DNA from: Escherichia coli
GTDB taxonomy: Bacteria; Pseudomonadota; Gammaproteobacteria; Enterobacterales; Enterobacteriaceae
Length of the DNA: 64,000 nucleotides
Assembly (NCBI RefSeq): GCF_024502345.1
Contig: NZ_JALDNN010000001.1
Reading direction: 5' to 3' (one strand)
In this document: positions 491 through 64,000 of the stretch, in pieces
How positions within the stretch are numbered: position 1 is the stretch's first letter
Layout of the letters: every line of letters starts with the position of its first letter
The notes under the pieces: model-generated
What the model was told of the DNA's origin: nothing
Database searches by the model: none
The model's input: only the letters and a program-made list of their open reading frames with translations
Translations under genes and position numbers: made by a program

Positions 491-757
491 ATGGAATGGC
501 TGGTCAAAAAATCGTGCTGCAATAAACAAGATAACAGACATGTACTTATGCTCTGCGATGCTGGCGGCGCGATAAAAATGATCGCCGAAGTGAAGAGTGA
601 CTTCGCCGTGAAAGTGGGGGATTTACTCTCACCTTTGCAGAATGCGCTTTACTGTATTAATCGTGAAAAGCTGCATACGGTGAAAGTCCTCTCCGCAAGC
701 TGTTATAGCCCCGATGAGTGGGAACGGCAGTGTAAAGTGGCAGGGAAAACTCAGTAA
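491..757 (+). CDS. pmrD: PmrD, connector protein linking PhoPQ to PmrAB signalling (88 aa)
   Basis: ATG at 491; translation [35 protein letters not shown]... recognised as PmrD; the six-frame ORF 461..757 is a 10-codon upstream extension. Confidence 0.9.
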
Positions 758-1137
758 CGTTGTTTTGTCGTGGGCAGGAAAATCAGCATCAACCCGCTCA
801 TAATACAGGCTACTCCCAGTAGTGCTTTCAGCGAAAAAGTCCCTTCCCAGCCGGGAAGTACCATTGAAGCAATCCATACCAGCACATAACTCATACTGAG
901 CAAGGCATAGGCTTTGCTTAGCGCAAGTTTATGTAGTGTTTTATACCAACAAAAAACGGAAAGCAGATAACCCAGCAGCCCGAGTAACAGTATCCGGGCA
1001 TCCAGCCCAAAAGCTAACAGAGCCGCGATAAAATCCCATAAGTGCGTCATCGGCGGCAGATGACTCGCCGCAAAACCCAGGCTTAATTGCGCAACTGAGG
1101 CAATAATGACGCTGAATAATCCCCACATCAGGCCCAT
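751..1137 (-). CDS. arnF: undecaprenyl-phosphate-Ara4N flippase subunit ArnF (128 aa)
   Basis: Internal start [22 protein letters not shown]... within ORF 751..1419; ATG overlaps the arnE stop (TAATG); small multi-TM protein; 3' end overlaps pmrD 3' end by 7 bp on the opposite strand. Confidence 0.85.
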
Positions 1138-1472
1138 TACACCGTACTCCCGAGGATCACAATGCCACCAATAATGAACGCCACCCCACACCAGTGACGC
1201 GGCGATACCGGTTCGTGCCACAGTTTTACTGCAGCCAGCGTCACCCAGACAAAATTCAGACTTAACATCGGGTAGGCAATGCCTACCGGTACGTTCTGCA
1301 AGACCAGCAGCCAGAGCACCATGGCAAGACCAAGACAAGCCAGCGCCAGTCCCAGCCACAGCACGATATGTTTGCGCCGTTTGTTTATCGCCACAAAGCA
1401 GGTTGCCTGCTTCTGACACAACTGCCCGGCAACGCTAAGCAAGCTGGCAAAGACTAATGTTAGCCAGATCAT
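1137..1472 (-). CDS. arnE: undecaprenyl-phosphate-Ara4N flippase subunit ArnE (111 aa)
   Basis: ORF 1137..1472; hydrophobic SMR-like protein [22 protein letters not shown]...; start overlaps the arnT stop. Confidence 0.9.
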
Positions 1473-3121
1473 TTGGGACGATACTGAATCAGCACCAGAC
1501 GCTCCTGACGATCGATGGCATCTGCGGGCGGAATGGCGAGACTGTTGATATCTTCATCGCGGTCAACCGAAAGCACGAGTGTAATAATCCCCTCCTGACG
1601 ATGTTGATTAAGCCAGTTTGCGAACTCATCATCGCTGACAAATCTCCCTTTCGCATCCGGATAATTAAGGCCGTATTTCAACTCACCTGTCTGGCGATAC
1701 ATGATGATGTCATCGCGTTGCAGGCTCCATGCCAGACCTGCGGCAACACCGACGCTATCAGTAAGAATATAGCGGCTTGGCTGAAGTGATTCTTGTGTCA
1801 TCTCGACAAAAAATTGCGGATGTTTTCCTTCCATGACTCTGTCAGGAATTGAAAATCCTACCAGCAACGCCAGCCCCAGCGGGCAAAGCGCGGCAAAAGA
1901 CCAGGTCTTTTCGACGTTTGTTAAGGTGTACCAGCCGAAAAATGCCCATAGCGAAAAAATCGACCAGGCACAAAAGACTTTATAGCTCTCGAAGGTTTGC
2001 CACACCGGCGTGTTCATTGGTCCCCAGGGGGAGACCACAAATGTGGCAATAATGCCAGTGACGCCAAAAGCGATGTTAATCCAGCCATTAATCCGCAGCG
2101 CCAGAGGATTATTTTTTGCTGCCAGCAAAGCGTAATGTGCCAACAGCATTGCCAGAGGTGCAAAGCAAGAAAGAATATAGGTGGGCAATTTGCCTTTAGC
2201 GACGGAGAAAAACAGCAGCGGCATTATCGTCCAGCTCAACAAATAGACGGTTGCGGAATGCTTGCGGTTTTTCCAGCCTGTGTACAGTGCACCGGGGAGT
2301 AATCCCAGCCACGGCAGGCTACCGGCAATGATGACCGGCACGTAGTACCAGAACGGGGCTCTGTGTTGGGCATCATCCAGTGCAAAGCGTTGAATATGCT
2401 CAACCCAGAAAAAATAGTGCCAGAAGTCAGGCTCCCGCTGCGCTATCGCCAGTCCCCAGGGGAGAACCGTCAGTACGCAACTGATAACCGCCAGCCAGCC
2501 GTAAATAAAGAGATCTTTCCAGCGTTTTTGCGTCGCTACCCATGGCAGCACGCTTAATACCGGCACGGCAAGGGCGAGAAAACCTTTGGTCATCACCCCC
2601 ATGCCGCAGGTGATTCCCAGCAGTAAAAATCCTGCGCTTTTGCCTTTCCACGTCTGTGCCTGCATTGCCAGCCAGAAGCTGCACATTCCCGCCACCAGCC
2701 AGAAGGCAATAAACGGATCGAGCACGGCATAAGTGCCGATGGCATAGACAATAAACAATGAGAGGTAAATCACTGTGGCGAGTAGAGCCAGACGTTTATC
2801 GCGCCATAAGCGCAGAGTAAACCAGGTCACCAGCGCGGCAGTTAACAGGGTCACAAAGATAACGCCTGCCCGCACACCAAAGTTATTCGCGCCAAATAGC
2901 CATTGCCCAATGCTGTTAATCCAGTATCCGGCAATGGGTTTTTCGAAATAACGTAGCCCTAACAGATGGGGCACAATCCAGTCGCCGGATGCCAGCATTT
3001 CTCGACTGATTTCCGCATAACGCGTTTCATCGGGTTGCCATAGCAGACGCGTGCTGATCGGTAACAGGTAATAGCAGGCAATAAACGCGAAGAGGCCGAT
3101 AAGGTAACGTACCGATTTCAT
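1469..3121 (-). CDS. arnT: undecaprenyl-phosphate 4-amino-4-deoxy-L-arabinose:lipid A arabinosyltransferase ArnT (550 aa)
   Basis: ORF 550 aa, polytopic membrane glycosyltransferase ([42 protein letters not shown]...); operon context. Confidence 0.95.
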
Positions 3122-4011
3122 CAGCGACTACCCGCAATTTGTTGGCAACCCAGCCAGCCTTCACGTCCGGCAATATTTCCGCGAACAACTTGTCCGAGCG
3201 GCAACGTCTCTGATAACAGTTCGCTTAAAGGGCAAAATGTCACGCCTTCCTGAGCTGCGCGTTTGAGGAGATCCACAAAATTATGCTGATAAGCGCAGCC
3301 TTCAACTTCTGCATGAATGGTATAAACCGGCGTGCCTTTATCTCGCAGGATGCGGTTGAGTAACCAACCATTAAAATCTTCTGCTTTCACATCCCGACCA
3401 ATCACTTCGTCCCAGGTGGGTAATGTCACCGGAATTTGCGCAGTGCCAGGGTTTCCTGATTCGAGCAGTGGACGGAACGGCATGGCCCCACGGCAATCGC
3501 TGTTGTAGCGCAAATGGAACGCTTCTTTTGCTTCGATCACCTGCTGGTCGGCACGCCAGCCCGCAGCGGCAGAACAGGTTACCGGTTGACCGATAATCTC
3601 TTCCAGGGTGCGAAGGCCGCGTGCAATATCGTCGATCATTGTTTGCCGATCCCAGTTACCGCTATGGGCTTGCCAGGCATGGTGATCCCAGGCGTGCAGG
3701 CCGACTTCGTGATGTTTAGCCGCTTCACGAATGATATCGGCATTGGCATGACCAATCTCTTTACCTGGCCAGGCCGTACCTGCCAGTAAAATATCCCAGC
3801 CATAAAGCGATGCCGCGTTTGAGCGCAGCATCTTCCACAAAAACTGTGGCTTCACCAGTCGCCAGAGATGGCGGCCCATATTGTCCGGGCCGACGCTGAA
3901 AAAAATGCTGGCCTGAATATTATGCTTACTCAAGATTTCCAGCAGACGCGGCACGCCTTCACGGGTGCCACGAAAGGTATCGACATCAATGCGTAAGCCT
4001 ACTTTGGTCAT
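3121..4011 (-). CDS. arnD: 4-deoxy-4-formamido-L-arabinose-phosphoundecaprenol deformylase ArnD (296 aa)
   Basis: ORF 296 aa, polysaccharide deacetylase-like sequence; start overlaps the arnA stop. Confidence 0.95.
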
Positions 4012-5989
4012 GATGGTTTATCCGTAAGATCAACGGTGCGCAGGAAGAAATCCAGCGTTTCGTCGATGGTTTCCTGCATATCAATTTTCGGTTCCCAGTC
4101 CAGGCAGCGGTGGGCATTGCGGATGCTCGGTTTACGATGCTCTACGTCCTGATATCCTTTGCCGTAGTAGCTGCTACTTTCGACAACGCGAAAGCCCGTA
4201 AACGGTGGGAAATGATGGCGCAGCGGATGTTTTTCGAAGCTCGCCAGCAGCATCTCGCCCAGTTCCTCAATGCTCGCTTCGTTCTCAGGATTGCCAATGT
4301 TGATAATTTCGCCGTCGCAGCGATTTCCCGCATTTTCGATAATGCGGTATAACGCCTCGATACCATCGCGAATATCAGTAAAGCAGCGTTTTTGTTTTCC
4401 GCCATCAATCAGCTTAATCGGTGAACCTTCTACCAGATTGAGAATGAGTTGCGTAATCGCGCGGGAGCTGCCGATTCGTGCCGCATTAAGGTTATCCAGT
4501 CGTGGTCCCATCCAGTTAAACGGGCGGAAGAGGGTGAACTGTAAACCCTCTTTTTCGCCATAGGCCCAGATAACCCGATCAAGTAATTGTTTTGACACCG
4601 AATAAATCCAGCGTGGTTTATTCACCGGGCCGACGATTAAATTAGAATGGTCCTCATCGAAGTATTTATCGCTACACATCCCATAAACTTCTGAAGTTGA
4701 CGGGAAGATGATTCGCTTACGGTACTTCACGCAGTAGCGGATAATGCGCAGATTCTCTTCAAAATCGAGTTCAAATACGCGCAGCGGGTTGCGGGTATAT
4801 TCAATCGGCGTGGCTATCGCCACCAGCGGCAAGACGACATCACATTTTTTGACGTGATACTCAATCCATTCGGAATGAATACTGATATCGCCTTCGACAA
4901 AGTGAAAATGCGGATGATTCAGAAAACGGCTTATCGCATCGCTGCCAATATCCAGACCGTAAACTTCATAATGATCTTCGCGCAGCAGGCGTTCTGTCAG
5001 ATGGTTGCCAATAAAGCCATTCACCCCGAGGATGAGTACCCGGGTACGGCGTCGGGCGGCACAGGCAGGCTGGCTATTCAAGCGTGAACCTTGCACCAGG
5101 CCCAGCGTCTGCGCTAATTGCGAGCCCTGCATAGTAATGCCGTCGCCCGCCTGTCCGGTGACGATTTCCAGCGCGCCATCGCCACAGGCAATCAGCAACG
5201 GCGCAACAGAAATCACGCTCCCCGGCTGTGCTTTGCTGGCATGAGGATGAACACGCGACGACCAGACGGTGAATTTCTGATTGCCAGCATAGCTGAAGGC
5301 ACCCGGCCACGGATCGGCAACGGCACGTACCATGTTGTGCAGTACGGATGCCGGCTTATGCCATTCGAGGAAACTGTCATCCGGCGTTCTGCGACCAAAA
5401 CAGGTGGCTTCGTTTTCGCGCTGGGCGATTTCCAGAATATTACCGTGTTTAATGGCGGGTAATGTCTGTTCCAGTAGCTGGCGCGCGGCATGGCACAATT
5501 TATGATGCAGCGTAATGGCGATATCATCTGGCGCAATGGCAACGCGCAGTTGCGCCACAATGGCCCCGGCATCGGCACGTTTTACCATTCGGTGCAATGT
5601 AACGCCAGTTTCTGTTTCACCGTTCACCAGCACCCAGTTCAGCGGCGCGCGACCACGATATTTTGGTAACAGCGAACCATGCAGATTAAATGCACCTGCG
5701 GGAGCGAGCTGCAAAATTTCGTCGCAAATAAGATGGCGATAATAAAAAGAGAAAATCACATCTGGCGACAGTTGGGCAATGCGTTCCACCCACAGCGGAT
5801 GATTAACGTCATCCGGCGCATAAACCGGAATGCCTCTTTCCGCCGCCAGACGAGCCACAGAACCATAAAAGGCTTTTTCACCGGGATTATCGGTATGGGT
5901 AAAAATGGCGCTAATTTCGTAACCGGTAGCCAGCAGGGCTTCAATACCGAGGCATCCCATATCGTGGTAGGCAAAAACGACGGTTTTCA

Positions 5990-5990
<1 letters not shown>
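4008..5990 (-). CDS. arnA: bifunctional UDP-glucuronic acid decarboxylase / UDP-Ara4N formyltransferase ArnA (660 aa)
   Basis: ORF 660 aa; N-terminal formyltransferase fold and C-terminal Rossmann motif [14 protein letters not shown]; operon context. Confidence 0.96.
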
Positions 5991-6961
<971 letters not shown>

Positions 6962-8119
6962 TTATTGTCCTGCGAGTTGCTGAAGGGCTGTGATGACATA
7001 GTCGGCATCGGCGGTAGTCATATCCGGGAACAGCGGCAAAGAACAGATGCGTTCGCTATTCCATTCGGTATTCGGTAACGACAGCGTGGGAAAACGCTCG
7101 CGATAATATTTTTGTGTGTGAGCGGCGCGGAAATGTAACCCGGTACCAATGCCTCTTTCTTTTAACGCTTCCATCAACGCATTTCGACTGATACCACAAC
7201 GTTGTTCATCGATACGAATAATAAACAGATGCCAGGCGTGAACGTGCGGCCAGGCGGGAAGGCTTAATGGCTGAAAGGGGAGAGCTGCCAGTGCTTGCTG
7301 ATATTGCAGGGCAATTTCGCGCCGACGGGTGTTGAGGTGCTCTAATTTAGCTAACTGTGTCAGGGCAATCGCGGCGTTAATATCGGTCAGATTGTACTTA
7401 TAGCCCGGAGTTAAGACTTCAGCCTGCGGTGCACGGCCCCAGGTTTGTCTGTCATAGGCATCGACACCCAGACCGTGAAATTTCAGCATCCGTAGCTGGC
7501 GGGCAAGGTTTTCATTATCAGTTACAATCAGGCCACCTTCAGCACAGGTAATATTTTTAATGGCATGAAATGAAAAAATAGCGGTACCTTTTGCGCCAAT
7601 ATGTCGCCCTTTGTAATACGTACCTACGGCATGGGCAGCATCTTCGATAACTGCGATGCCGTAACGTTCGCCAATGGCGCGAATGGCGTCAATATCTGCT
7701 GGCGCACCGGCATAATGCACCGGAATGATGGCTTTAGTGCGTGGCGTAATGGCTGATTCGATCGCTTCAGGCGTGACCATCAGCGTATCGCGATCGACAT
7801 CCACCATTACCGGTGTTGCACCCAGCAAGGAAATCATATTGAGGGTTGAAACCCAGGTCAGGGAAGGCGTAATCACTTCATCGCCCTTGCCAATTTCCAA
7901 CGCCATTAGCGTGATATGCATTCCGGCGGTGGCTGAACTGACCGCGATGGCATGCTGATTTCCCGTCAACTGGCAAAAGGCTTGTTCAAGCGCGTGATTC
8001 TTCGGACCGGTTGTGATCCAACCGGATTCGAGAACCTCTTTAACTGCAGCGAGTTCCTCCACGCCCATTGCTGGTCGCGAAAAAGGCAAAAATTCTGACA
8101 TTGCTTTTCCTTCCGCCAT
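6962..8119 (-). CDS. arnB: UDP-4-amino-4-deoxy-L-arabinose--oxoglutarate aminotransferase ArnB (385 aa from MAEGK; ORF extends to 8134)
   Basis: DegT/ArnB-type PLP aminotransferase ([11 protein letters not shown]..., [13 protein letters not shown]); first gene of the operon; start choice 8119 versus 8134 is uncertain. Confidence 0.93.
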
Positions 8120-16027: not shown

Positions 16028-16228
16028 TTAGTGGTTATTCGCTGCCAGATCGGCTTCGCTTAGCTGGGTGGCCGCGAGCACCAGGTCACGATCAAAGCCC
16101 TGTTCCAGCATGCGCAAAGCAATTTTAATGGCTTGTTCATGCATGCCTTCCTGCAAACCTTCTAATTTACCTTCTTGCCAGCCAATTTGATGTCCTTCCT
16201 GCCGTAGCCGTTCAGCATTAGTCATCAA
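16028..16228 (-). CDS. ypaA: YpaA, 66-aa standalone copy of the Rpn C-terminal domain (partial duplicate of the rpnE 3' end)
   Basis: [45 protein letters not shown]... is near-identical to the last ~70 residues of the adjacent 323-aa ORF. Confidence 0.7.
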   Translation of the reverse strand: MMTNAERLRQEGHQIGWQEGKLEGLQEGMHEQAIKIALRMLEQGFDRDLVLAATQLSEADLAANNH

Positions 16229-16237
16229 TCTCTCCTT

Positions 16238-17209
16238 TTAATGACAGTTCGGAATATCAGCATCAGTGAGTTGGGTTGCCGCCAGCACAATCTCACGTTC
16301 AAAGCCCTGCTCCAGCATGCGCAAGGCAATTTTAATGGCTTGCTCATGCATGCCTTCCTGCAAACCTTCTAATTTACCTTTCTGCAGACCCTCCAATTTA
16401 CCTTGCTGCAAACCTTCTAATTTACCTTCCTGCCAACCAATTTGATGTCCTTCCTGCCGTAGCCGTTCAGCAATAGTCATTAATCTCTCCTTTTGTAGTG
16501 GTGAACGTTCGGCAATCTCCTGAATAAAACGGGTGAAACGGGAGGTATCGCCGCATTGCAGCAGATAATTAAACAGTGTTTGTAGCTGGCTGTCATTAGT
16601 GAAGCCTCTAACCAAAAGCGTGGTGATCCTGTCGACCATACCGATTAAATCGCGGTCGCGAATATGCTTTTGAATCAGTTCCAGCAGAGCTATACGCCGA
16701 TGTTGCATGATCTCATCGTCAGGTACGATGGTGATATCCACCAACGGAAAAGCTTCGGTGTACAACTGCCGGGCAAGTTGCGGATCGTCAAACTCATCCA
16801 GCCAGTTGAGTGAGTACGGGTAGGGCGAGGTTTCGCCATGATAAAACAGCAACGGCACCACCAGCTGGACTCTGTCATAGCCTTTGTCCAGGTGACGCTG
16901 CATGGCGGCAGTGGCATAGCGCATTAGCCGAAAAGCCATATTCTTTTCTGCAGAGCTTTGATGTTCAATCACGCAGTAGATATAGCCGTCACCGTCGCTG
17001 GTTTCCACGGACCACAAAACATCCGAGTAGTAAGCGCGTAAACTTTTTTCAATAAAACTAGTGGGTTCCAGGCGTAAGGTTTGCAGGTTGCAAAGCTTGC
17101 GCAGTGGTTCTGGTAAATGTATTTCGAGAAAATCCCGTGCGGTTTCGGGTGTGAACATAAAGGTTTTAAACACCGCATCATGCGGGGAGGAGGTTGTTGA
17201 TTCGGTCAT
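16238..17209 (-). CDS. rpnE: Rpn-family recombination-promoting nuclease / transposase_31-like protein RpnE (YfaD), 323 aa
   Basis: ORF 323 aa ([19 protein letters not shown]...), recognised as YhgA/Rpn family; C-terminus contains the GKLEGLQ repeat. Confidence 0.85.
16361..16432 (-). repeat. three in-frame tandem copies of a 24-bp unit (CAAACCTTCTAATTTACCTTCCTG and variants) in the rpnE 3' region, encoding (Q/K/E)GKLEGLQ x3
   Basis: Seen directly: units at 16361-16384, 16385-16408 and 16409-16432; ypaA carries a single copy (16154-16177). Confidence 0.9.
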
Positions 17210-24189: not shown

Positions 24190-24228
24190 GGCATCCGGGA
24201 AGGCAAAACCTGACCGGATGCCCTTTTC
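24190..24228. terminator. hairpin GGCATCCGG-N15-CCGGATGCC followed by CTTTT, between convergent glpQ and the LysR gene
   Basis: 9-bp perfect inverted repeat directly after the glpQ stop; T-run on the + strand. Confidence 0.5.
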
Positions 24229-25105
24229 ACAATATGCCTTTGACCACCAGGGTTTCCATACACATTTGCAATAAAAACAATGGGCTGCCTTCTACCGGCG
24301 CCTCTTTGACCAGCAATGAAATTTGCCGATAAAACGTCGGCTCCAGCGGGACAGAGCATAACTCACCGGCGACGGCTTTCAGCGTCAGCTCCGGTAACAG
24401 AGCAATTCCTAATCCCTGGCGAATAAAACTTATTGCCGTATCTGGATGGTTAAATTCATATTTAATGACCGGCGTAATATTCTTTTCCTTAAATAACGCC
24501 ATAATGCTTAATTCATAACGCCCCTTACTGATAATGAGCGGTTCTCCCACCAGTTCTTCCACCGATATAGCGTTATTTTTTGCCAGGGGATGAGCATCTG
24601 GCAGCACCACGGTAAATTTATCCTGATATACCGGGACGGAATACATTCCGGTTACCGGAAAATGGACAAAACCGGCATCGATAGTTTCGTTTTGCACCGA
24701 ATCAATAATTTCACTGCTGTTCTCTTCGTAAGGAATGATTTTTATCTGCGGATGATAAGTTTCAAAATAGCGAATAATACCCGGTAAAATACACGCGCAG
24801 GCGCTGGGAAAGCAGCCGATGCGCAGCGTTCTGGTCGGGTTATGTTTTTCCTGCTCGGCAATTTCTTTCACAGCGTTCACTTCACGGGTAATCGCCCGCA
24901 GATGGCTTGCGATGCGTGAGCCGGCGTCAGTCAGCTGCAGTGCTTTTCGCCGCTCGCGGATCAGGATCTCTACGCCAAGCTCTTGCTCCAGGGTGGCAAT
25001 GGCCTGGCTTACGGCGGATTGCGTCATAAACAGGCGCTTACTGGCTTCGGTAAAGCCGCCATAATCCAGTACGGCGAGCAGGGTGTGGATTTGGGTTAGT
25101 GTCAT
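24227..25105 (-). CDS. LysR-family transcriptional regulator (292 aa)
   Basis: N-terminal LysR HTH (MTLTQIHTLLAVLDYGGFTEASKRLFMTQSAVSQAIATLEQELG) plus substrate-binding domain; divergent from an MFS gene. Probably the intact counterpart of the K-12 yfaH remnant (inference). Confidence 0.85.
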   Translation of the reverse strand: MTLTQIHTLLAVLDYGGFTEASKRLFMTQSAVSQAIATLEQELGVEILIRERRKALQLTDAGSRIASHLRAITREVNAVKEIAEQEKHNPTRTLRIGCFPSACACILPGIIRYFETYHPQIKIIPYEENSSEIIDSVQNETIDAGFVHFPVTGMYSVPVYQDKFTVVLPDAHPLAKNNAISVEELVGEPLIISKGRYELSIMALFKEKNITPVIKYEFNHPDTAISFIRQGLGIALLPELTLKAVAGELCSVPLEPTFYRQISLLVKEAPVEGSPLFLLQMCMETLVVKGIL

Positions 25106-31755: not shown

Positions 31756-34700
31756 ATGCGGATTATCTTTCTACGCAAGGAGTATTTATCTCTACTCCCG
31801 TCAATGATTGCATCTCTTTTCTCTGCTAACGGTGTCGCGGCGGCCATTGATTTATGCCAGGGATATGATATCAAAGCGAGTTGTCACGCCAGCAGGCAAA
31901 GCCTTTCAGGCATTACGCAGGTCTGGAGTATCGCCGATGGGCAATGGCTGGTTTTTTCGGATATGACCAATAATGCCAGCGGTGGGGCCGTATTTTTGCA
32001 ACAAGGAGCGGAATTTACATTATCACCAGAAAATGAAACTGGAATGACTCTGTTTGCCAATAACACCGTTTCAGGAGAATATAATAACGGCGGGGCAATA
32101 TTTGCTAAAGAAAACTCAACGCTGAATCTTACGGATGTTATTTTTTCTGGTAACGTCGCAGGCGGCTATGGTGGCGCAATCTATTCTTCTGGTACTAACG
32201 ATACCGGTGCCATCGATTTACGTGTCACTAACGCCGTGTTTCGCAATAACATCGCTAATGACGGCAAAGGTGGTGCAATTTATACCATCAATAATGATAT
32301 CTATTTAAGTGATGATGTTTTTAACAATAACCAGGCATATACATCAACAAGTTACAGTGATGGCGATGGCGGCGCAATCGATGTCACAGATAATAATAGC
32401 GACAGCAAGCATCCTTCAGGTTATACGATAATAAATAACACTGCCTTTACAAATAACACTGCCGAAGGTTATGGCGGGGCGATATATACCAATAGCGCGA
32501 CGGCTCCCTATCTTATTGATATTTCTGTTGATGACAGCTACAGCCAGAACGGAGGCGTGTTAGTCGATGAGAACAATAGCGCAGCAGGCTATGGAGATGG
32601 TCCTTCCTCTGCGGCGGGTGGCTTTATGTATCTCGGCTTAAGTGAAGTTACCTTTGATATTGCCGACGGAAAAACGCTGGTTATCGGCAATACAGAGAAT
32701 GACGGAGCTGTTGACTCTATTGCTGGTACCGGGTTGATCACCAAAACAGGTTCCGGCGATCTGGTACTTAATGCAGATAACAATGACTTTACTGGTGAGA
32801 TGCAGATTGAAAACGGTGAAGTTATTCTGGGCCGCAGCAACTCCCTGATGAATGTCGGAGATACTCATTGCCAGGACGATCCGCAAGACTGCTACGGTCT
32901 GACGATAGGGAGTATTGATAAGTACCAGAATCAGGCAGAGCTAAACGTTGGCTCGACCCAACAAACTTTTGTGCACGCATTGACGGGCTTTCAGAATGGC
33001 ACTTTAAATATCGATGCTGGTGGCAACGTTACTGTTAATCAGGGCAGTTTTGCTGGCATCATCGAAGGTGCTGGTCAGCTCACCATTGCGCAAAACGGCA
33101 GCTACGTGCTGGCAGGGGCGCAGTCGATGGCGCTAACCGGCGATATAGTCGTTGATGATGGTGCGGTGCTTTTGCTGGAAGCCGACGCGGCAGATCTTAC
33201 CGCTCTCCAGGACGATCCGCAGTCGATCGTGTTAAACGGCGGTGTGCTCGATCTCTCTGATTTCTCCACCTGGCAGAGCGGCACATCATACAATGATGGC
33301 CTTGAAGTCAGTGGCAGCAGCGGAACGGTTATCGGCAGTCAGGATGTGGTAGATCTTGCAGGCGGAAACGATATGCATATCGGCGGCGACGGGAAAGATG
33401 GCGTCTACGTGGTGATCGATGCGGGTGACGGGCAGGTCAGCCTGGCAAATGACAATCAATACCTCGGCACAACGCAAATCGCTTCCGGTACGCTGATGGT
33501 GAGCGACAACTCGCAGCTTGGAGATACCCATTATAACCGCCAGGTTATCTTTACCGATAAGCCACAAGAAAGCGTGATGGAGATTACTGCCAATGTCGAT
33601 ACTCGCTCTACAACGACTGAGCATGGGCGTGATATTGAAATGCGCGCCGACGGTGAAGTGGCAGTTGATGCGGGGGTAGACACGCAGTGGGGCGCACTGA
33701 TGGCTGACAGCAGCGGGCAGCATCATGATGAGGGTAGCACATTGACGAAAACGGGGGCGGGTACGCTGGAGCTGACCGCCAGCGGTACAACGCAGTCGGC
33801 GGTACGTGTCGAAGAAGGCACCCTGAAAGGTGATGTTGCTGATATCCTTCCTTATGCTTCATCACTGTGGGTTGGTGACGGGGCAACGTTCGAGACTGGC
33901 GCGGATCAGGATATTCAGTCTATCGATGCTACTTCCAGCGGCACTATCGACATCAGCGATGGTACGGTTTTGCGCCTGACCGGGCAGGATACTTCCGTCG
34001 CCCTTGATGCCTCACTGTTTAACGGCGATGGGACGCTGGTAAATGCTACCGATGGCGTGACGTTGACAGGCGAGCTTAATACCAACCTTGAAACTGACAG
34101 CCTGACCTATCTTGCTGACGTGACGGTTAATGGTGATCTGACCAATACGTCCGGTGCGGTTAGCCTGCAAAATGGCGTCGCTGGCGATACGCTGACGGTA
34201 AACGGTGATTATACCGGCGGCGGTACGCTACTGTTCGACAGCGAATTAAACGGCGATGACTCGGTAAGCGATCAATTGGTGATGAACGGTAATACTGCTG
34301 GCAACACAACTGTGGTGGTTAACTCCATTACAGGGATTGGTGAGCCGACATCGACAGGCATTAAAGTGGTTGATTTCGCAGCTGATCCCACGCAGTTTCA
34401 AAACAATGCACAGTTCAGTCTGGCTGGCAGTGGCTACGTCAACATGGGAGCGTATGACTACACGCTAGTGGAAGATAACAACGACTGGTATCTGCGATCG
34501 CAAGAAGTAACGCCGCCATCGCCACCTGAGCCAGACCCGACTCCCGATCCTGATCCCACGCCGGATCCTGACCCAACCCCCGACCCGGCCCCTACGCCTG
34601 CTTACCAGCCGGTGCTGAATGCCAAAGTTGGCGGTTATCTCAATAACCTGCGGGCGGCAAATCAGGCGTTTATGATGGAGCGACGCGATCACGCTGGTAG

Positions 34701-35508
34701 CGATGGTCAGACGCTGAATTTACGTGTTATCGGCGGACGTTATCATTACACGGCGGCAGGGCAACTGGCTCAGCAGGAAGACACTTCTACGGTGCAGCTT
34801 AGCGGTGACCTGTTTAGCGGGCGCTGGGGCGATGATGGCGAGTGGATGCTTGGGATTGTAGGTGGCTACAGCGATAACCAGGGCGACAGCCGCTCGAGTA
34901 TGACCGGAACTCGCGCCGATAACCAGAACCACGGTTATGCCGTTGGGCTGACCTCAAGCTGGTATCAGCACGGTAATCAGAAGCAGGGGGCCTGGCTGGA
35001 TAGCTGGCTGCAATACGCGTGGTTTAACAATGATGTTTCCGAACAAGACGATGGCGTGGATCATTACCATTCGTCGGGGATTATCGCCTCGCTGGAAGCG
35101 GGGTATCAGTGGTTACCGGGGCGTGGTGTGGTGATTGAACCGCAGGCGCAGGTGATTTATCAGGGCGTGCAGCAGGATGATTTTACCGCCGCTAACCGTG
35201 CGCGCGTGTCACAATCGCAGGGTGATGATATTCAGACGCGGCTGGGTTTACACAGCGAATGGCGTACCGCTGTTCATGTCATACCAACATTAGATCTGAA
35301 TTATTATCACGATCCCCATTCGACGGAAATTGAAGAGGATGGCAGCACTATCAGTGACGATGCGGTGAAGCAATGGGGTGAAATAAAAGTGGGAGTCACG
35401 GGCAATATCAGTCAGCGAGTGTCCCTGCGCGGCAGCGTGGCGTGGCAGAAAGGGAGTGATGATTTTGCCCAGACGGCAGGGTTTTTGTCGATGACGGCGA
35501 AATGGTAA
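31756..35508 (+). CDS. yfaL: AIDA-I-type autotransporter adhesin YfaL/EhaC (1250 aa)
   Basis: Large ORF with repeated GGA(I/V)Y beta-helix passenger motifs, a proline-rich PEPDPTPDPDPTPDPDPTPDPAPTP linker and a C-terminal beta-barrel translocator ending in ...AKW; preceded by about 690 bp of AT-rich DNA. Confidence 0.93.
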   Translation: MRIIFLRKEYLSLLPSMIASLFSANGVAAAIDLCQGYDIKASCHASRQSLSGITQVWSIADGQWLVFSDMTNNASGGAVFLQQGAEFTLSPENETGMTLFANNTVSGEYNNGGAIFAKENSTLNLTDVIFSGNVAGGYGGAIYSSGTNDTGAIDLRVTNAVFRNNIANDGKGGAIYTINNDIYLSDDVFNNNQAYTSTSYSDGDGGAIDVTDNNSDSKHPSGYTIINNTAFTNNTAEGYGGAIYTNSATAPYLIDISVDDSYSQNGGVLVDENNSAAGYGDGPSSAAGGFMYLGLSEVTFDIADGKTLVIGNTENDGAVDSIAGTGLITKTGSGDLVLNADNNDFTGEMQIENGEVILGRSNSLMNVGDTHCQDDPQDCYGLTIGSIDKYQNQAELNVGSTQQTFVHALTGFQNGTLNIDAGGNVTVNQGSFAGIIEGAGQLTIAQNGSYVLAGAQSMALTGDIVVDDGAVLLLEADAADLTALQDDPQSIVLNGGVLDLSDFSTWQSGTSYNDGLEVSGSSGTVIGSQDVVDLAGGNDMHIGGDGKDGVYVVIDAGDGQVSLANDNQYLGTTQIASGTLMVSDNSQLGDTHYNRQVIFTDKPQESVMEITANVDTRSTTTEHGRDIEMRADGEVAVDAGVDTQWGALMADSSGQHHDEGSTLTKTGAGTLELTASGTTQSAVRVEEGTLKGDVADILPYASSLWVGDGATFETGADQDIQSIDATSSGTIDISDGTVLRLTGQDTSVALDASLFNGDGTLVNATDGVTLTGELNTNLETDSLTYLADVTVNGDLTNTSGAVSLQNGVAGDTLTVNGDYTGGGTLLFDSELNGDDSVSDQLVMNGNTAGNTTVVVNSITGIGEPTSTGIKVVDFAADPTQFQNNAQFSLAGSGYVNMGAYDYTLVEDNNDWYLRSQEVTPPSPPEPDPTPDPDPTPDPDPTPDPAPTPAYQPVLNAKVGGYLNNLRAANQAFMMERRDHAGSDGQTLNLRVIGGRYHYTAAGQLAQQEDTSTVQLSGDLFSGRWGDDGEWMLGIVGGYSDNQGDSRSSMTGTRADNQNHGYAVGLTSSWYQHGNQKQGAWLDSWLQYAWFNNDVSEQDDGVDHYHSSGIIASLEAGYQWLPGRGVVIEPQAQVIYQGVQQDDFTAANRARVSQSQGDDIQTRLGLHSEWRTAVHVIPTLDLNYYHDPHSTEIEEDGSTISDDAVKQWGEIKVGVTGNISQRVSLRGSVAWQKGSDDFAQTAGFLSMTAKW

Positions 35509-35648: not shown

Positions 35649-36371
35649 TCACTTATTCTGCGTGTGCAGCATATAGTTCACATCCACGCCGGGGCCGAGT
35701 TTAAAAGTATTAGTGATCGGGTTGTAATGTAGCCCGGTTATATGTCGCTCTTTAAGGCTTGTCTGATCTACCCAGCCAAGCAGCTCTGCCGGTTTAATAA
35801 ACTTCTTCACATCATGCGTGCCTTTGGGCACCATGCGCAAAATATATTCCGCGCCAACCACCGCCATCAGCCATGACTTGCCGTTGCGGTTAAGCGTCGA
35901 GAAAAAGACATCGCCGCCCGGTTTCACCAGTTGCGCACAGGCTCTGACCACTGACTGCGGATCGGGGACGTGCTCCAGCATCTCCATGCAGGTCACCACA
36001 TCATACTGCCCGGCATGTTTTGCCGCGTGCTCTTCCACGGTTTCCTGCACGTAATCCACCTGAATGCCGCTTTCCAGCGCGTGCAGCTTTGCCACCTGCA
36101 ATGGCTCAAAGCCCATATCCAGACCGGTCACCGTCGCGCCTTCGCGCGCCATACTCTCGGCCAGAATGCCGCCGCCACAACCGACATCGAGCACCTTTTT
36201 GCCAAATAAGCCGCCAGCACGCTCGGCAATATAGCCCAGACGCAGCGGGTTAATGCGGTGCAGCGGTTTGAACTCACCTTCCAGATCCCACCAGCGGGAG
36301 GCGACGGCTTCAAATTTAGCGATCTCTTCGTGGTCTACGTTATGGTTTACCGGCGATTTTTCGGCATTCAT
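35649..36371 (-). CDS. ubiG: bifunctional ubiquinone biosynthesis O-methyltransferase UbiG (240 aa)
   Basis: Start [21 protein letters not shown] at 36371; SAM-binding motif [13 protein letters not shown]. Confidence 0.95.
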
Positions 36372-36517
36372 TGGCACTTCTACTCCGTAATTGGCAAGAC
36401 AAACGAGTATATCAGGCATTGGATGTGAATAAAGCGTATAGGTTTACCTCAAACTGCGCGGCTGTGTTATAATTTGCGACCTTTGAATCCGGGATACAGT
36501 AGAGGGATAGCGGTTAG

Positions 36518-39145
36518 ATGAGCGACCTTGCGAGAGAAATTACACCGGTCAACATTGAGGAAGAGCTGAAGAGCTCCTATCTGGATTATGCGATGTCGGT
36601 CATTGTTGGCCGTGCGCTGCCAGATGTCCGAGATGGCCTGAAGCCGGTACACCGTCGCGTACTTTACGCCATGAACGTACTAGGCAATGACTGGAACAAA
36701 GCCTATAAAAAATCTGCCCGTGTCGTTGGTGACGTAATCGGTAAATACCATCCCCATGGTGACTCGGCGGTTTATGACACGATCGTCCGTATGGCGCAGC
36801 CATTCTCGCTGCGTTACATGCTGGTAGACGGTCAGGGTAACTTCGGTTCCATCGACGGCGACTCTGCGGCGGCAATGCGTTATACGGAAATCCGTCTGGC
36901 GAAAATTGCCCATGAACTGATGGCCGATCTCGAAAAAGAGACGGTCGATTTTGTTGATAACTATGACGGCACGGAAAAAATTCCCGACGTCATGCCAACC
37001 AAAATTCCTAACCTGCTGGTGAACGGTTCTTCCGGTATCGCCGTAGGTATGGCAACCAACATCCCGCCGCACAACCTGACGGAAGTCATCAACGGTTGTC
37101 TGGCGTATATCGATGATGAAGACATCAGCATTGAAGGGCTGATGGAACACATCCCGGGGCCGGACTTCCCGACGGCGGCAATCATTAACGGTCGTCGCGG
37201 TATTGAAGAAGCTTACCGTACCGGTCGCGGCAAGGTGTATATCCGCGCTCGCGCAGAAGTGGAAGTTGACGCCAAAACCGGTCGTGAAACCATTATCGTC
37301 CACGAAATTCCGTATCAGGTAAACAAAGCGCGCCTGATCGAGAAGATTGCGGAACTGGTAAAAGAAAAACGCGTGGAAGGCATCAGCGCGCTGCGTGACG
37401 AGTCTGACAAAGACGGTATGCGCATCGTGATTGAAGTGAAACGCGATGCGGTCGGTGAAGTTGTGCTCAACAACCTCTACTCCCAGACCCAGTTGCAGGT
37501 TTCTTTCGGTATCAACATGGTGGCATTGCACCATGGTCAGCCGAAGATCATGAACCTGAAAGACATCATCGCGGCGTTTGTTCGTCACCGCCGTGAAGTG
37601 GTGACCCGTCGTACTATTTTCGAACTGCGTAAAGCTCGCGATCGTGCTCATATCCTTGAAGCATTAGCCGTGGCGCTGGCGAACATCGACCCGATCATCG
37701 AACTGATCCGTCATGCGCCGACGCCTGCAGAAGCGAAAACTGCGCTGGTTGCTAATCCGTGGCAGCTGGGCAACGTTGCCGCGATGCTCGAACGTGCTGG
37801 CGACGATGCTGCGCGTCCGGAATGGCTGGAGCCAGAGTTCGGCGTGCGTGATGGTCTGTACTACCTGACCGAACAGCAAGCTCAGGCGATTCTGGATCTG
37901 CGTTTGCAGAAACTGACCGGCCTTGAGCACGAAAAACTGCTCGACGAATACAAAGAGCTGCTGGATCAGATCGCGGAACTGTTGCGTATTCTTGGTAGCG
38001 CCGATCGTCTGATGGAAGTGATCCGCGAAGAGCTGGAGCTGGTTCGTGAACAGTTCGGTGACAAACGTCGTACTGAAATCACCGCCAACAGCGCAGACAT
38101 CAACCTGGAAGATCTGATCACCCAGGAAGATGTGGTCGTGACGCTCTCTCACCAGGGCTATGTTAAATATCAGCCGCTTTCTGAATACGAAGCGCAGCGT
38201 CGTGGCGGGAAAGGTAAATCTGCCGCACGTATTAAAGAAGAAGACTTTATCGACCGACTGCTGGTGGCAAACACGCACGACCATATTCTGTGCTTCTCCA
38301 GCCGTGGTCGCGTCTATTCGATGAAAGTTTACCAGTTGCCGGAGGCCACTCGTGGCGCGCGCGGTCGTCCGATCGTCAACCTGCTGCCGCTGGAGCAGGA
38401 CGAACGTATCACCGCGATCCTGCCGGTGACCGAGTTTGAAGAAGGCGTGAAAGTCTTCATGGCGACCGCTAACGGTACTGTGAAGAAAACCGTCCTCACC
38501 GAATTCAACCGTCTGCGTACCGCCGGTAAAGTGGCGATCAAACTGGTTGAAGGCGATGAGCTGATCGGCGTTGATCTGACCAGTGGCGAAGATGAAGTAA
38601 TGCTGTTCTCCGCCGAAGGTAAAGTGGTGCGCTTTAAAGAGTCTTCTGTCCGTGCGATGGGCTGCAACACCACCGGTGTTCGCGGTATTCGTTTAGGCGA
38701 AGGCGATAAAGTCGTCTCTCTGATCGTGCCTCGTGGCGATGGCGCAATCCTCACCGCAACGCAGAACGGTTATGGTAAACGTACTGCAGTGGCGGAATAC
38801 CCGACTAAGTCGCGTGCGACGAAAGGGGTTATCTCCATCAAGGTTACCGAACGTAACGGTTTAGTGGTTGGCGCGGTGCAGGTAGATGACTGCGACCAGA
38901 TCATGATGATCACCGATGCCGGTACGCTGGTACGTACGCGCGTTTCAGAAATCAGCATCGTGGGCCGTAACACCCAGGGCGTGATCCTCATCCGTACTGC
39001 GGAAGATGAAAACGTAGTGGGTCTGCAACGTGTTGCTGAACCGGTTGACGAGGAAGATCTGGATACCATCGACGGCAGTGCCGCGGAAGGGGACGATGAA
39101 ATCGCTCCGGAAGTGGACGTTGACGACGAGCCAGAAGAAGAATAA
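36518..39145 (+). CDS. gyrA: DNA gyrase subunit A GyrA (875 aa)
   Basis: ORF 875 aa; catalytic Tyr region AAMRYTEIR; QRDR reads GDSAVYD (Ser83/Asp87, wild type); acidic C-terminal tail. Confidence 0.98.
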
Positions 39146-39293
39146 TTTTACTTCTTCATGCCAAAAGGGAGCTATCTCCCTTGTTTGAATTGAAAAGTCC
39201 AGGCTGCAAAGTCTGGGCTTTTGTCGTATTAGGGCGCGGTAAAGTTTGGCTGTGTCCGTAAAAAATGGCTGGCTATACACAAGGAATGTGGCA

Positions 39294-46140
<6,847 letters not shown>

Positions 46141-48571: not shown

Positions 48572-48845
48572 TCCATCCCTTCACACAACCTGGCTCTTTC
48601 TTTTTTCAGATAAGACTGCTGGGCGATCTGCCGACGCCAGGATATAACCATTAACAAGCGTCGGCAGATTGGTCATTTCTTATTTTTCGTACTGAGAACT
48701 GTCCATTTACTCCGGCTTTCCTGGTTAAGGCAATGGTTTCTAAGCGATACGCATTATTGCAATGGTGACAGAACATTGCGGTAACACGCTTTTACCGCTA
48801 CCTTAACCACACTCCATCGGTCACCTGAGGCGGAGCTTCGCCCCT

Positions 48846-51695
48846 TTGAAATACCTTGCTTCTTTTCGTACAACCCTGAAAGCCTCGCGCTACATGTTCA
48901 GAGCATTGGCGTTAGTGCTCTGGCTGTTGATTGCTTTTTCATCCGTTTTTTACATCGTTAATGCGTTACATCAGCGAGAATCGGAAATTCGTCAGGAATT
49001 TAATCTGAGTTCCGATCAGGCTCAGCGCTTTATTCAACGCACCTCTGATGTGATGAAAGAGCTGAAGTACATCGCCGAAAATCGCTTATCGGCAGAAAAC
49101 GGTGTGCTTTCCCCGCGTGGACGAGAAACGCAGGCGGATGTGCCTGCGTTTGAACCGCTGTTTGCCGACTCCGATTGTTCAGCAATGAGTAACACCTGGC
49201 GAGGTTCTCTGGAGTCATTGGCGTGGTTTATGCGCTACTGGCGCGATAATTTTTCTGCGGCTTACGATCTCAATCGGGTATTTTTAATCGGCAGCGATAA
49301 CCTCTGCATGGCCAATTTCGGTCTGCGTGATATGCCAGTGGAACGCGATACCGCGTTGAAAGCGTTGCATGAACGCATCAATAAATATCGAAATGCACCA
49401 CAAGATGATAGCGGCAGTAACCTCTACTGGATCAGCGAAGGTCCGCGCCCTGGCGTCGGGTATTTTTACGCGTTGACGCCAGTTTATCTGGCGAACCGGT
49501 TGCAGGCGCTTTTGGGTGTCGAGCAGACCATCCGGATGGAGAATTTTTTCTTACCTGGTACGTTGCCGATGGGGGTTACCATTCTTGATGAAAATGGTCA
49601 TACCCTGATTTCGCTTACCGGACCAGAAAGCAAAATTAAGGGCGATCCTCGCTGGATGCAGGAACGCTCCTGGTTTGGCTATACGGAAGGGTTCCGGGAG
49701 CTGGTGCTGAAGAAAAATCTGCCACCCTCATCGCTAAGCATCGTTTATTCGGTGCCGGTTGATAAGGTGCTGGAACGCATTCGCATGTTGATCCTTAACG
49801 CAATTTTGCTGAATGTGCTTGCCGGAGCTGCATTGTTTACTCTCGCGCGGATGTACGAGCGGCGTATTTTCATTCCGGCGGAAAGCGACGCCCTGCGACT
49901 GGAAGAACATGAGCAGTTCAATCGCAAGATTGTCGCCTCCGCGCCAGTGGGTATCTGCATTTTGCGTACCGCTGATGGCGTCAATATTTTAAGTAACGAA
50001 CTGGCGCATACCTATCTCAATATGCTTACGCATGAGGACCGCCAACGACTGACGCAAATTATCTGTGGGCAGCAGGTCAATTTTGTTGATGTCCTGACCA
50101 GCAACAATACCAATCTGCAAATCAGCTTCGTCCATTCGCGCTATCGTAATGAAAACGTGGCCATTTGTGTGCTGGTGGATGTTTCTTCGCGCGTGAAGAT
50201 GGAAGAGTCGTTGCAGGAGATGGCACAAGCAGCGGAACAGGCGAGCCAGTCAAAATCGATGTTCCTTGCCACCGTCAGTCATGAGCTGCGAACGCCGCTG
50301 TATGGCATTATCGGTAACCTGGATCTGTTGCAAACCAAAGAGTTACCGAAAGGCGTCGATCGTCTGGTGACGGCAATGAACAACTCTTCCAGCCTGTTGT
50401 TGAAAATTATCAGCGATATTCTCGATTTCTCGAAGATTGAATCAGAACAGTTGAAGATCGAACCGCGTGAGTTTTCACCGCGTGAAGTGATGAACCACAT
50501 CACCGCCAACTATTTACCGCTGGTGGTACGCAAGCAGTTAGGCTTGTACTGCTTTATTGAACCGGATGTGCCAGTGGCTTTAAATGGCGACCCGATGCGT
50601 TTACAGCAGGTCATCTCCAACCTGTTGAGTAACGCCATAAAATTCACCGATACCGGCTGTATAGTTTTGCATGTTCGCGCTGATGGCGATTATCTCTCTA
50701 TCCGTGTTCGCGATACCGGCGTGGGGATACCGGCGAAAGAAGTGGTGCGCTTGTTTGATCCCTTCTTCCAGGTCGGAACGGGCGTACAGCGAAACTTCCA
50801 GGGGACCGGTCTGGGTCTGGCGATTTGTGAAAAACTGATCAGCATGATGGACGGCGACATCTCGGTAGATTCAGAACCGGGAATGGGCAGCCAGTTTACC
50901 GTGCGTATTCCGTTGTACGGCGCTCAGTACCCGCAGAAAAAAGGCGTGGAAGGGTTGAGTGGTAAACGCTGCTGGCTGGCGGTCCGCAATGCGTCGCTCT
51001 GTCAGTTCCTGGAAACCAGTTTGCAGCGCAGCGGCATCGTCGTAACAACATACGAAGGGCAGGAACCGACTCCCGAAGATGTGTTAATTACTGACGAGGT
51101 AGTGAGTAAAAAATGGCAGGGTAGAGCGGTAGTGACCTTCTGTCGTCGCCATATTGGTATTCCGCTGGAGAAAGCGCCAGGGGAGTGGGTACACAGTGTG
51201 GCTGCTCCGCATGAGCTACCGGCATTGTTGGCGCGTATTTATTTGATCGAGATGGAGAGCGACGATCCTGCTAACGCTCTGCCGTCGACGGACAAAGCGG
51301 TCAGCGATAATGACGATATGATGATTCTGGTCGTGGATGATCATCCGATTAACCGACGTCTGCTGGCAGATCAGTTGGGATCGTTGGGCTATCAATGTAA
51401 AACCGCGAATGATGGCGTCGATGCGCTTAATGTACTTAGCAAGAATCATATTGATATCGTGCTTAGCGACGTCAACATGCCAAATATGGATGGTTACCGC
51501 TTGACGCAACGCATTCGTCAGTTGGGACTGACGTTGCCGGTAATCGGAGTAACTGCTAATGCGTTGGCTGAAGAGAAGCAGCGGTGTCTGGAGTCCGGTA
51601 TGGACAGCTGCCTGTCGAAGCCGGTAACGCTGGATGTGATAAAACAGACGCTGACGGTATATGCCGAGAGGGTCAGGAAATCGCGGGAATCGTAG
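48846..51695 (+). CDS. rcsC: hybrid sensor histidine kinase RcsC (949 aa, TTG start)
   Basis: HisKA H-box SHELRTPLYGI, HATPase domain and C-terminal receiver (LVVDDHPINRRL...DVNMPNMDG). Confidence 0.96.
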   Translation: MKYLASFRTTLKASRYMFRALALVLWLLIAFSSVFYIVNALHQRESEIRQEFNLSSDQAQRFIQRTSDVMKELKYIAENRLSAENGVLSPRGRETQADVPAFEPLFADSDCSAMSNTWRGSLESLAWFMRYWRDNFSAAYDLNRVFLIGSDNLCMANFGLRDMPVERDTALKALHERINKYRNAPQDDSGSNLYWISEGPRPGVGYFYALTPVYLANRLQALLGVEQTIRMENFFLPGTLPMGVTILDENGHTLISLTGPESKIKGDPRWMQERSWFGYTEGFRELVLKKNLPPSSLSIVYSVPVDKVLERIRMLILNAILLNVLAGAALFTLARMYERRIFIPAESDALRLEEHEQFNRKIVASAPVGICILRTADGVNILSNELAHTYLNMLTHEDRQRLTQIICGQQVNFVDVLTSNNTNLQISFVHSRYRNENVAICVLVDVSSRVKMEESLQEMAQAAEQASQSKSMFLATVSHELRTPLYGIIGNLDLLQTKELPKGVDRLVTAMNNSSSLLLKIISDILDFSKIESEQLKIEPREFSPREVMNHITANYLPLVVRKQLGLYCFIEPDVPVALNGDPMRLQQVISNLLSNAIKFTDTGCIVLHVRADGDYLSIRVRDTGVGIPAKEVVRLFDPFFQVGTGVQRNFQGTGLGLAICEKLISMMDGDISVDSEPGMGSQFTVRIPLYGAQYPQKKGVEGLSGKRCWLAVRNASLCQFLETSLQRSGIVVTTYEGQEPTPEDVLITDEVVSKKWQGRAVVTFCRRHIGIPLEKAPGEWVHSVAAPHELPALLARIYLIEMESDDPANALPSTDKAVSDNDDMMILVVDDHPINRRLLADQLGSLGYQCKTANDGVDALNVLSKNHIDIVLSDVNMPNMDGYRLTQRIRQLGLTLPVIGVTANALAEEKQRCLESGMDSCLSKPVTLDVIKQTLTVYAERVRKSRES

Positions 51696-51893
51696 GACGG
51701 ATAAGGTGTTTATGCCGCATCCGGCATTCAGTGCAAATGCCAGATGCGACGCTGACGCGTCTTATCTGGCCTACTTTAATGTAATCTGTTGAAATAATGG
51801 GAATCGTAGGACGGATAAGGCGTTTACGCCGCATCCGGCAATCGGTGCAAATGCCAGATAAGACACTAACGCGTCTTATCTGGCCTACAGATG
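51685..51893. repeat. REP/BIME array between convergent rcsC and rcsB, organised as a 114-bp tandem duplication that includes the last 11 bp of rcsC
   Basis: GGGAATCGTAGGACGGATAAGG...GCCGCATCCGGCA...GCGTCTTATCTGGCCTAC occurs twice, starting at 51685 and 51799. Confidence 0.8.
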
Positions 51894-55545: not shown

Positions 55546-55638
55546 AAAAAAAACCGGATGCGAGGCATCCGGTTGAAATAGGGGTAAACAGACATTCAGA
55601 AATGAATGACGGTAATAAATAAAGTTAATGATGATAGC
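55546..55638 (-). ncRNA. micF: MicF small regulatory RNA (antisense regulator of ompF mRNA), including its intrinsic terminator
   Basis: Minus-strand sequence GCTATCATCATTAACTTTATTTATTACCGTCATTCATTTCTGAATGTCTGTTTACCCCTATTTCAACCGGATGCCTCGCATCCGGTTTTTTTT matches MicF as I recall it; divergent from ompC. Confidence 0.9.
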
Positions 55639-55793
55639 GGGAGATATTCTAGTTGCGAGTGAAGGTTTTGTTTTGACATTCAGTGCTGTCAAATACTTAA
55701 GAATAAGTTATTGATTTTAACCTTGAATTATTATTGCTTGATGTTAGGTGCTTATTTCGCCATTCCGTAATAATCTTAAAAAGTTCCCTTGCA

Positions 55794-55972: not shown

Positions 55973-57085
55973 ATGAAAGTTAAAGTACTGTCCCTCCTGG
56001 TCCCAGCTCTGCTGGTAGCAGGCGCAGCAAATGCTGCTGAAGTTTACAACAAAGACGGCAACAAATTAGATCTGTACGGTAAAGTAGACGGCCTGCACTA
56101 TTTCTCCGACAACGATAAGGTTGATGGCGACAAGACCTACATGCGTCTTGGCTTCAAAGGTGAAACTCAGGTTACTGACCAGCTGACCGGTTACGGCCAG
56201 TGGGAATATCAGATCCAGGGTAACGCTCCGGAAAGCGAAAACAACTCCTGGACCCGTGTGGCATTTGCTGGTCTGAAATTCCAGGACGTTGGTTCTTTCG
56301 ACTACGGTCGTAACTACGGCGTTGTTTACGACGTAACCTCCTGGACCGACGTGCTGCCAGAATTCGGTGGCGACACCTACGGTTCTGACAACTTCATGCA
56401 GCAGCGTGGTAACGGCTTCGCGACCTACCGTAACACCGACTTCTTCGGTCTGGTTGACGGCCTGAACTTTGCTGTTCAGTATCAGGGCAAAAACGGTAGC
56501 GTAAGCGGCGAAGGCATGACCAACAACGGTCGTGATGCTCTTGAGCAGAACGGTGACGGTGTTGGTGGTTCTATCACTTATGACATCGGTGAAGGCTTCA
56601 GCTTCGGTGGTGCGATCTCCAGCTCCAAACGCACCGCAGAGCAGAACAACAGTGCTCGTTTCATCGGTAATGGTGATCGTGCAGAAACCTACACTGGTGG
56701 TCTGAAATACGACGCTAACAACATCTACCTGGCTGCTCAGTACACCCAGACTTATAACGCAACTCTGGCTGGTGATTTAGGCTGGGCGAACAAAGCCCAG
56801 AACTTTGAAGTGGTTGCCCAGTATCAGTTCGACTTCGGTCTGCGTCCTTCTGTTGCTTACCTGCAGTCCAAAGGTAAAAATCTGAATGCCAACATCGCTG
56901 GTCGTACTTACGACGACGAAGATCTGGTGAAATATGTTGATGTTGGTGCTACCTACTACTTCAACAAAAACATGTCCACCTATGTTGATTACAAAATCAA
57001 CCTGCTGGACGACAATAACTTCACCCGCGCTGCTGGCATCAACACTGATGACATCGTAGCTCTGGGTCTGGTTTACCAGTTCTAA
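55973..57085 (+). CDS. ompC: outer membrane porin OmpC (370 aa)
   Basis: Signal peptide [21 protein letters not shown], porin beta-barrel sequence ending ...GLVYQF. Confidence 0.97.
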
Positions 57086-63660: not shown

Positions 63661-63665
63661 GTATG

Positions 63666-64000
63666 CTGATAAGACGCGCCAGCGTCGCATCAGGCAACCG
63701 GCTCGGGCGTTAGATGTCGGATGCGGCGTGACCGCCTTATCCGACCTACGGGGTGGAGCACTTCACAGCGGTGTAGGCCTGATAAGACGCGTCAGCGTCG
63801 CATCAGGCAACCGGCTCGGACGTTGGATGTCGGATGCGGCGTAACCGCCTTATCCGACCTACGGGGTGGAGCACTTCACAGCGGTGTAGGCCTGATAAGA
63901 CGCGTCAGCGTCGCATCAGGCAACCGGCTCGGACGTTGGATGTCGGATGCGGCGTAACCGACTTATTCGACCTACGGGGTGGAGCACTTCACAGCGGCGT
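63666..64000. repeat. BIME-type REP array: at least three tandem copies of a 113-bp unit, continuing beyond the window end
   Basis: Unit starts at 63666, 63779 and 63892; each contains REP palindromes (CTGATAAGACGCG(C/T)CAGCGTCGCATCAGGC, GGATGCGGCGT(A/G)ACCGCCTTATCCGACCTAC); explains the duplicated small ORFs in the six-frame track. Confidence 0.85.

Follow-up and report, generated by a model that had tools for sequence, protein, structure and literature searches.

Fluoroquinolones act by entering the double-strand break made by DNA gyrase and blocking its religation (PMC9917921). The C3/C4 keto-acid of the drug chelates a Mg2+ ion whose surrounding waters are hydrogen-bonded to Ser83 and Asp87, both of which serve as anchors in the Escherichia coli gyrase, and the commonest resistance changes are S83L and D87N/Y (PMC9917921). 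The gyrA changes catalogued in PointFinder with K-12 MG1655 as the reference comprise A51V, A67S, G81C, D82G, S83L/W/A/V/I, A84P/V, D87N/G/Y/H/V, Q106H/R, and A196E (PMC5890747 Table 1).

Two described proteins serve as points of comparison for the gene examined here. The first is GyrA of E. coli K-12 MG1655 (b2231, NP_416734.1), an 875-residue protein that represents the reference quinolone-susceptible allele. The second is ParC, subunit A of topoisomerase IV, which has a paralogous breakage-reunion domain, shares the helix-4 motif HPHGDSA..Y(D/E) and the same bridge mechanism, and differs in its length (752 residues), the lack of a GyrA box, the numbering of the corresponding residues (Ser80/Glu84) and its location at a different locus. 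In type IIA topoisomerases a tyrosine (Tyr122 in E. coli numbering) has the catalytic role in the breakage-reunion domain, and the GyrA box is the hallmark that sets the C-terminal domain of gyrase apart from that of topoisomerase IV.

This report describes the gyrA gene contained in a 64-kb window (the whole stretch of DNA that was analysed), a collinear chromosomal segment bounded by menE on one side and the start of eco on the other. The closest public genome is that of strain C 236-04A (O125ac:K+:H10, NZ_CP109924.1), which is 99.95% identical to the window, the differences being 28 substitutions and 2 indels, none of them in gyrA. It is almost certain that the window carries a chromosomal E. 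coli gyrA with a wild-type quinolone-resistance-determining region (QRDR), from which no target-mediated quinolone resistance arises. The gene, its residues, the mechanism and the exact allele are already present in reference databases and the literature, and no new biology is described.

The gyrA locus and its protein

The features of the locus are collected in Table 1. A single long open reading frame covers the codons under study, and its ATG at 36518 sets the reading frame. The product scores 1309.7 bits with the NCBIfam gyrA equivalog model TIGR01063 (cut-off 877) and 1258.7 with NF004043 (cut-off 902). Among the Pfam families, the type IIA breakage-reunion domain PF00521 covers residues 32-507 (E = 6.7e-163), and six stretches of PF03989 correspond to the gyrase C-terminal blades. 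Full-length E. coli GyrA structures (e.g., 6rks) align with residues 1-875, end to end, and structure 1zi0 matches the C-terminal domain (residues 535-841). Arg121 is intact beside the catalytic tyrosine, as is the acidic tail. The gene order yfaL-ubiG-gyrA-yfaA-yfaT is common to the window and K-12. This open reading frame is the chromosomal gyrA of E. coli, as seen in its family score, domains, Tyr122, GyrA box and position.

Table 1. Coordinates of gyrA, its neighbours and the features discussed in the text.
Feature	Position	Strand	Basis or comment
ubiG, divergent upstream neighbour (240 aa)	35649..36371	-	Synteny marker; protein identical to K-12
ubiG-gyrA divergent intergenic region, 146 bp	36372..36517	.	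Identical to K-12; four-way comparison
gyrA CDS, DNA gyrase subunit A	36518..39145	+	875 codons plus stop; ORF list, translation, profiles
QRDR, codons 67-106	36716..36835	+	Protein identical to K-12; codon-by-codon comparison with MG1655
19-residue peptide quoted in the initial annotation, residues 78-96, includes helix 4 of the DNA-gate	36749..36805	+	Regular expression on translation
Codons 83-87, Ser83-Ala-Val-Tyr-Asp87 (TCG GCG GTT TAT GAC), the span reported in the initial annotation	36764..36778	+	Sequence and K-12 codon comparison
Codon 122, TAT, catalytic Tyr122, intact	36881..36883	+	Residue read from translation
GyrA box QRRGGKG, residues 560-566	38195..38215	+	Regular expression on translation
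Codon 678, GAA (Glu), D678E, C-terminal beta-pinwheel domain	38549..38551	+	Sole amino-acid difference from K-12 GyrA
Terminator-like hairpin, 20 nt past the gyrA stop codon	39165..39182	+	Consensus scan only, weak
yfaA, downstream neighbour as in K-12	39294..40982	+	Synteny marker

The protein is identical to K-12 GyrA at 874 of 875 residues, with the same QRDR, Tyr122, GyrA box and acidic tail, and this degree of identity to a characterised enzyme suggests that it would carry out ATP-dependent negative supercoiling together with GyrB. At the nucleotide level the two genes differ at 36 of 2628 positions (98.63% identity), and 35 of these differences are silent. Because the gyrA region (36400-39200; 2801 bp) is 100% identical to those of C 236-04A and of strain 19SZHZ869Rt (NZ_CP080085.1), the protein is that of record WP_001281251.1, the GyrA of C 236-04A O125ac:H10, 19SZHZ869Rt and strain 133, from which it differs at no position inside gyrA.

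A search for regulatory variation upstream of gyrA revealed no difference from K-12 in the 146-bp spacer. At position 36442 the window has G and the closest genome has A; the A is private to that genome, and the window agrees with K-12 and NZ_CP080085.1. The spacer contains TGTTATAAT, an extended -10 element with TATAAT at 36468-36473, which, from what is known of the K-12 gene, is presumably the gyrA promoter. This promoter was missed by a simple sigma-70 consensus scan, whose only match (36954-36981) lies inside the coding sequence, is within chance expectation and was discarded.

The quinolone-resistance-determining region and drug sensitivity

The codon for Ser83 is TCG (36764-36766; 36518 + 246 = 36764) and that for Asp87 is GAC (36776-36778), and a six-frame translation of the whole window contains the motif HPHGD a single time. 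The QRDR, whose boundaries at codons 67 and 106 were reportedly set by Yoshida et al. in 1990, shows only silent differences from K-12, at codons 85 (GTT), 91 (CGT) and 100 (TAC), with a further one just beyond it at codon 111 (TCC). The K-12 residue is present at each of positions 51, 67, 81, 82, 83, 84, 87, 106, 119, and 196, and none of the gyrA resistance substitutions catalogued in PointFinder occurs in the window protein, all listed positions having been compared with K-12. Alleles of fluoroquinolone-resistant strains (S83L and S83L+D87N/Y; e.g., WP_001281225.1) belong to the same gene and occur on the same silent backgrounds (codon 85 GTT or GTC); their codon 83 is TTG and their codon 87 is AAC or TAC, whereas the window has TCG and GAC.

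The initial annotation had named the gene as gyrA, read codons 83 and 87 as TCG (Ser) and GAC (Asp) within a quoted peptide and declared S83L and D87N/G/Y absent. The gene name is borne out by the equivalog score, the structures and the near-complete identity to K-12; coordinates, codons and peptide were recovered exactly, and the absence of the substitutions extends to the whole protein, which departs from K-12 at D678E alone.

In the mechanism described for this enzyme, GyrA provides the DNA breakage-reunion half of gyrase, and the drug inserts in the cleaved DNA gate, where a Mg2+-water bridge to two helix-4 residues, Ser83 and Asp87, holds or positions the fluoroquinolone. With both anchors and all catalogued positions unmutated, drug-stabilised cleavage complexes should form normally, and gyrA would make no target-mediated contribution to resistance. 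A normal, drug-sensitive gyrase is predicted because both anchors are present and the remaining protein is that of the reference enzyme; this phenotype is deduced from residue identity with the K-12 protein.

Alternative readings and population context

The alternative that survives best concerns the strain rather than the gene, namely that the source strain is non-susceptible through loci outside the window, so that a wild-type gyrA would be a true but misleading guide to phenotype. The candidates are plasmid-borne qnr, aac(6')-Ib-cr, qepA or oxqAB-type genes, changes in gyrB, parC or parE, and efflux up-regulation through marR, acrR or soxR. The 48 chromosomal genes of the window, all of them open reading frames, take up its entire coding space; ompC and micF are present and are not primary determinants, and no parC, parE, gyrB, marR, acrR or acquired quinolone-resistance gene was found among the 48, so that the candidate loci lie beyond what the window displays. 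One of the 153 genomes with a GyrA allele that carries D678E only is resistant (PMC7067475), and marR mutants with wild-type gyrA show 4-16-fold increases in levofloxacin MIC (PMC6830822 Table 2). For reference, the ciprofloxacin MIC of wild-type K-12 in PMC6830822 is 0.015 ug/ml. On the other hand, the remaining 152 carriers of that allele are susceptible (PMC7067475), and, for E. coli resistance to be of clinical relevance, gyrase mutations at Ser83/Asp87 are typically needed (PMC9917921). Moreover, ParC and ParE of C 236-04A are identical to those of K-12; this genome is a proxy that differs from the window at about 0.05% of sites over the 64 kb, and it is suggestive of wild-type ParC and ParE in the source strain as well. 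Resistance encoded elsewhere is thus considered unlikely. Since the window holds no parC, parE, gyrB or acquired genes, gyrA can be said to contribute no resistance, but susceptibility of the whole strain is not deducible from it. The prediction of susceptibility in the initial annotation had been confined to this locus, and that scope appears rightly drawn given the absence of parC, parE, gyrB and qnr-type genes from the window. As a routine resistance-genotyping call, this isolate has an unmutated gyrase, the enzyme that fluoroquinolones primarily target in E. coli, and for strain annotation the call can be used to regard high-level fluoroquinolone resistance as unlikely, as this is not expected where gyrA is unchanged.

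A second alternative is that D678E, located in the DNA-wrapping C-terminal domain, alters gyrase (its supercoiling set-point or its drug response), in which case the allele would differ in function from that of wild-type K-12. The window protein has no other amino-acid change, and D678E recurs in resistance surveys beside S83L and D87N. However, the replacement of Asp by Glu is conservative and keeps the charge, and the change lies outside the resistance region and is missing from the curated PointFinder list. The allele found here is of the same class as 'gyrA-1 (D678E)' of a pan-genome study, as judged from the description in that paper, and the 'D678E only' allele was present there in 153 genomes, of which 152 were susceptible to fluoroquinolones and 1 was resistant (PMC7067475 Table 3), that is, nearly all carriers devoid of S83L/D87N were susceptible. 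In a Thai clinical series D678E follows sequence type (ST405, ST38, ST448, ST1193), with or without S83L/D87N (PMC10638923); such a distribution across sequence types is the pattern that would be expected of a lineage marker. A functional effect of D678E is thus highly improbable. The nucleotide allele itself is a minority one: only 353 of 5425 complete genomes match the region 36400-39200 at an identity of 99% or more, although the protein it encodes is near-reference; there is a very slight chance that D678E and this minority haplotype together mark a lineage in which, even with a wild-type QRDR, gyrase differs measurably in its supercoiling set-point or its response to quinolones.

The wild-type codons might also stem from an error of sequencing or assembly that hides S83L or a D87 substitution, and a sequencing error at these codons is what the initial annotation had named as refuting its reading; no evidence in favour of such an error was found. 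A 45-nt query (codons 76-90) was searched against 5426 complete E. coli genomes. The wild-type haplotype of the window, with GTT at codon 85, was found exactly in 2012 of 5425 genomes and at 90-95% identity in 337, and the wild-type haplotype of the K-12 type, with GTC at this codon, exactly in 639 and at 90-95% identity in 1503. In this collection, which is biased to clinical isolates, about 49% or more of the complete genomes are therefore wild type over the 45-nt core, and a wild-type QRDR is entirely ordinary in E. coli. Only the exact matches and those with three or more mismatches can be interpreted, as the bands with one or two mismatches mix silent variants and single mutants; judged from these identity bands, with five records spot-checked, about 1840 of 5425 genomes (about a third) have at least three mismatches and are probably double mutants. 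Of the five lower-identity matches sampled, four carried S83L+D87N or S83L+D87Y, and these occurred on both silent backgrounds; the fifth had a wild-type core in which codon 84 was a silent GCA. In the gyrA search of the 5426 genomes, one match belonged to a record with a plasmid label, and one genome gave no gyrA match at all.

A sequencing error is not credible because the 45-nt core occurs exactly in 2012 of 5425 genomes; in addition, the two genomes with which the 2801-bp region shares 100% identity were sequenced independently, in Denmark and China, and codons 83 and 87 do not lie within a homopolymer run. An artefact at these codons is therefore extremely improbable and was rejected, and the wild-type reading of gyrA, which nothing in the sequence contradicts, is retained.

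The reading of the motif as part of parC, which would misplace both the numbering and the resistance inference, can be suggested by the near-identical motif HPHGDSACYEAMVLMA of ParC (seen in parC of the closest relative) and by the fact that the NCBIfam ParC models also match the window protein at lower scores, but it is refuted by the model scores (parC_Gneg 581.5 vs a cut-off of 628.9 and parC_Gpos 692.1 vs 813.25, the gyrA model being far above its own), the GyrA box, the length of 875 residues with six gyrase C-terminal blades, the 874 residues shared with K-12 GyrA, the ubiG-gyrA-yfaA order as in K-12 and the distance of about 0.92 Mb between parC and gyrA in the closest relative.

Other loci in the window

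Several additional features of the window were recorded in the comparison with K-12 and the closest genomes. The atoSC-atoDAEB operon, which in K-12 separates rcsC from yfaP and takes up about 7.3 kb, is absent; yfaP ends at 48571 and rcsC starts at 48846, leaving a 274-bp spacer (48572-48845), as in the two closest genomes. Within the yfaA-yfaT-yfaS-yfaQ-yfaP cluster, yfaS (41626-46140, + strand), which encodes a member of the alpha-2-macroglobulin family, is an intact frame of 1504 codons, and the K-12 annotation lists it as a pseudogene. A LysR-family regulator gene (24227-25105, - strand) and yfaA are uninterrupted in the window and annotated as 'frameshifted' in NZ_CP109924.1, which has a 2-bp indel at window position 24938 and a 1-bp indel at 39814; these may be either real differences or assembly errors in the public record.

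The gene of the autotransporter adhesin YfaL/EhaC (31756-35508, + strand) is intact (1250 codons) in the window and in NZ_CP109924.1 and frameshifted in NZ_CP080085.1; the proteins of the window and NZ_CP109924.1 differ in one residue (position 476, Ala and Gly, respectively). The pmrD gene and the arnBCADTEF operon (491-8101), which is responsible for the aminoarabinose modification of lipid A and is relevant to polymyxins, are present and intact, and the arn products show three amino-acid differences from those of NZ_CP109924.1 (ArnF L102S, ArnA A598T, and ArnB V297I). At 16028-17209 (- strand), between the rhamnonate genes and glpC, a 323-codon gene for an ISNCY-family (Rpn-type) transposase lies beside a truncated open reading frame.

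The antisense sRNA MicF (55546-55639, - strand; Rfam RF00033, 116.8 bits) is located upstream of ompC (55973-57085). Relative to NZ_CP109924.1, there is a substitution 12 nt before the MicF 5' end, at 55651, on its upstream side, and ompC itself has two silent substitutions. Two REP-type arrays match Rfam naRNA4: the one at 51695-51885 (+ strand) contains two REP copies between the convergent genes rcsC and rcsB, and the one at 63664-63972 (- strand), which lies between mqo and eco, contains three copies in a tandem of about 113 bp. This mqo-eco array accounts for most of the differences from NZ_CP109924.1 at the window's end.
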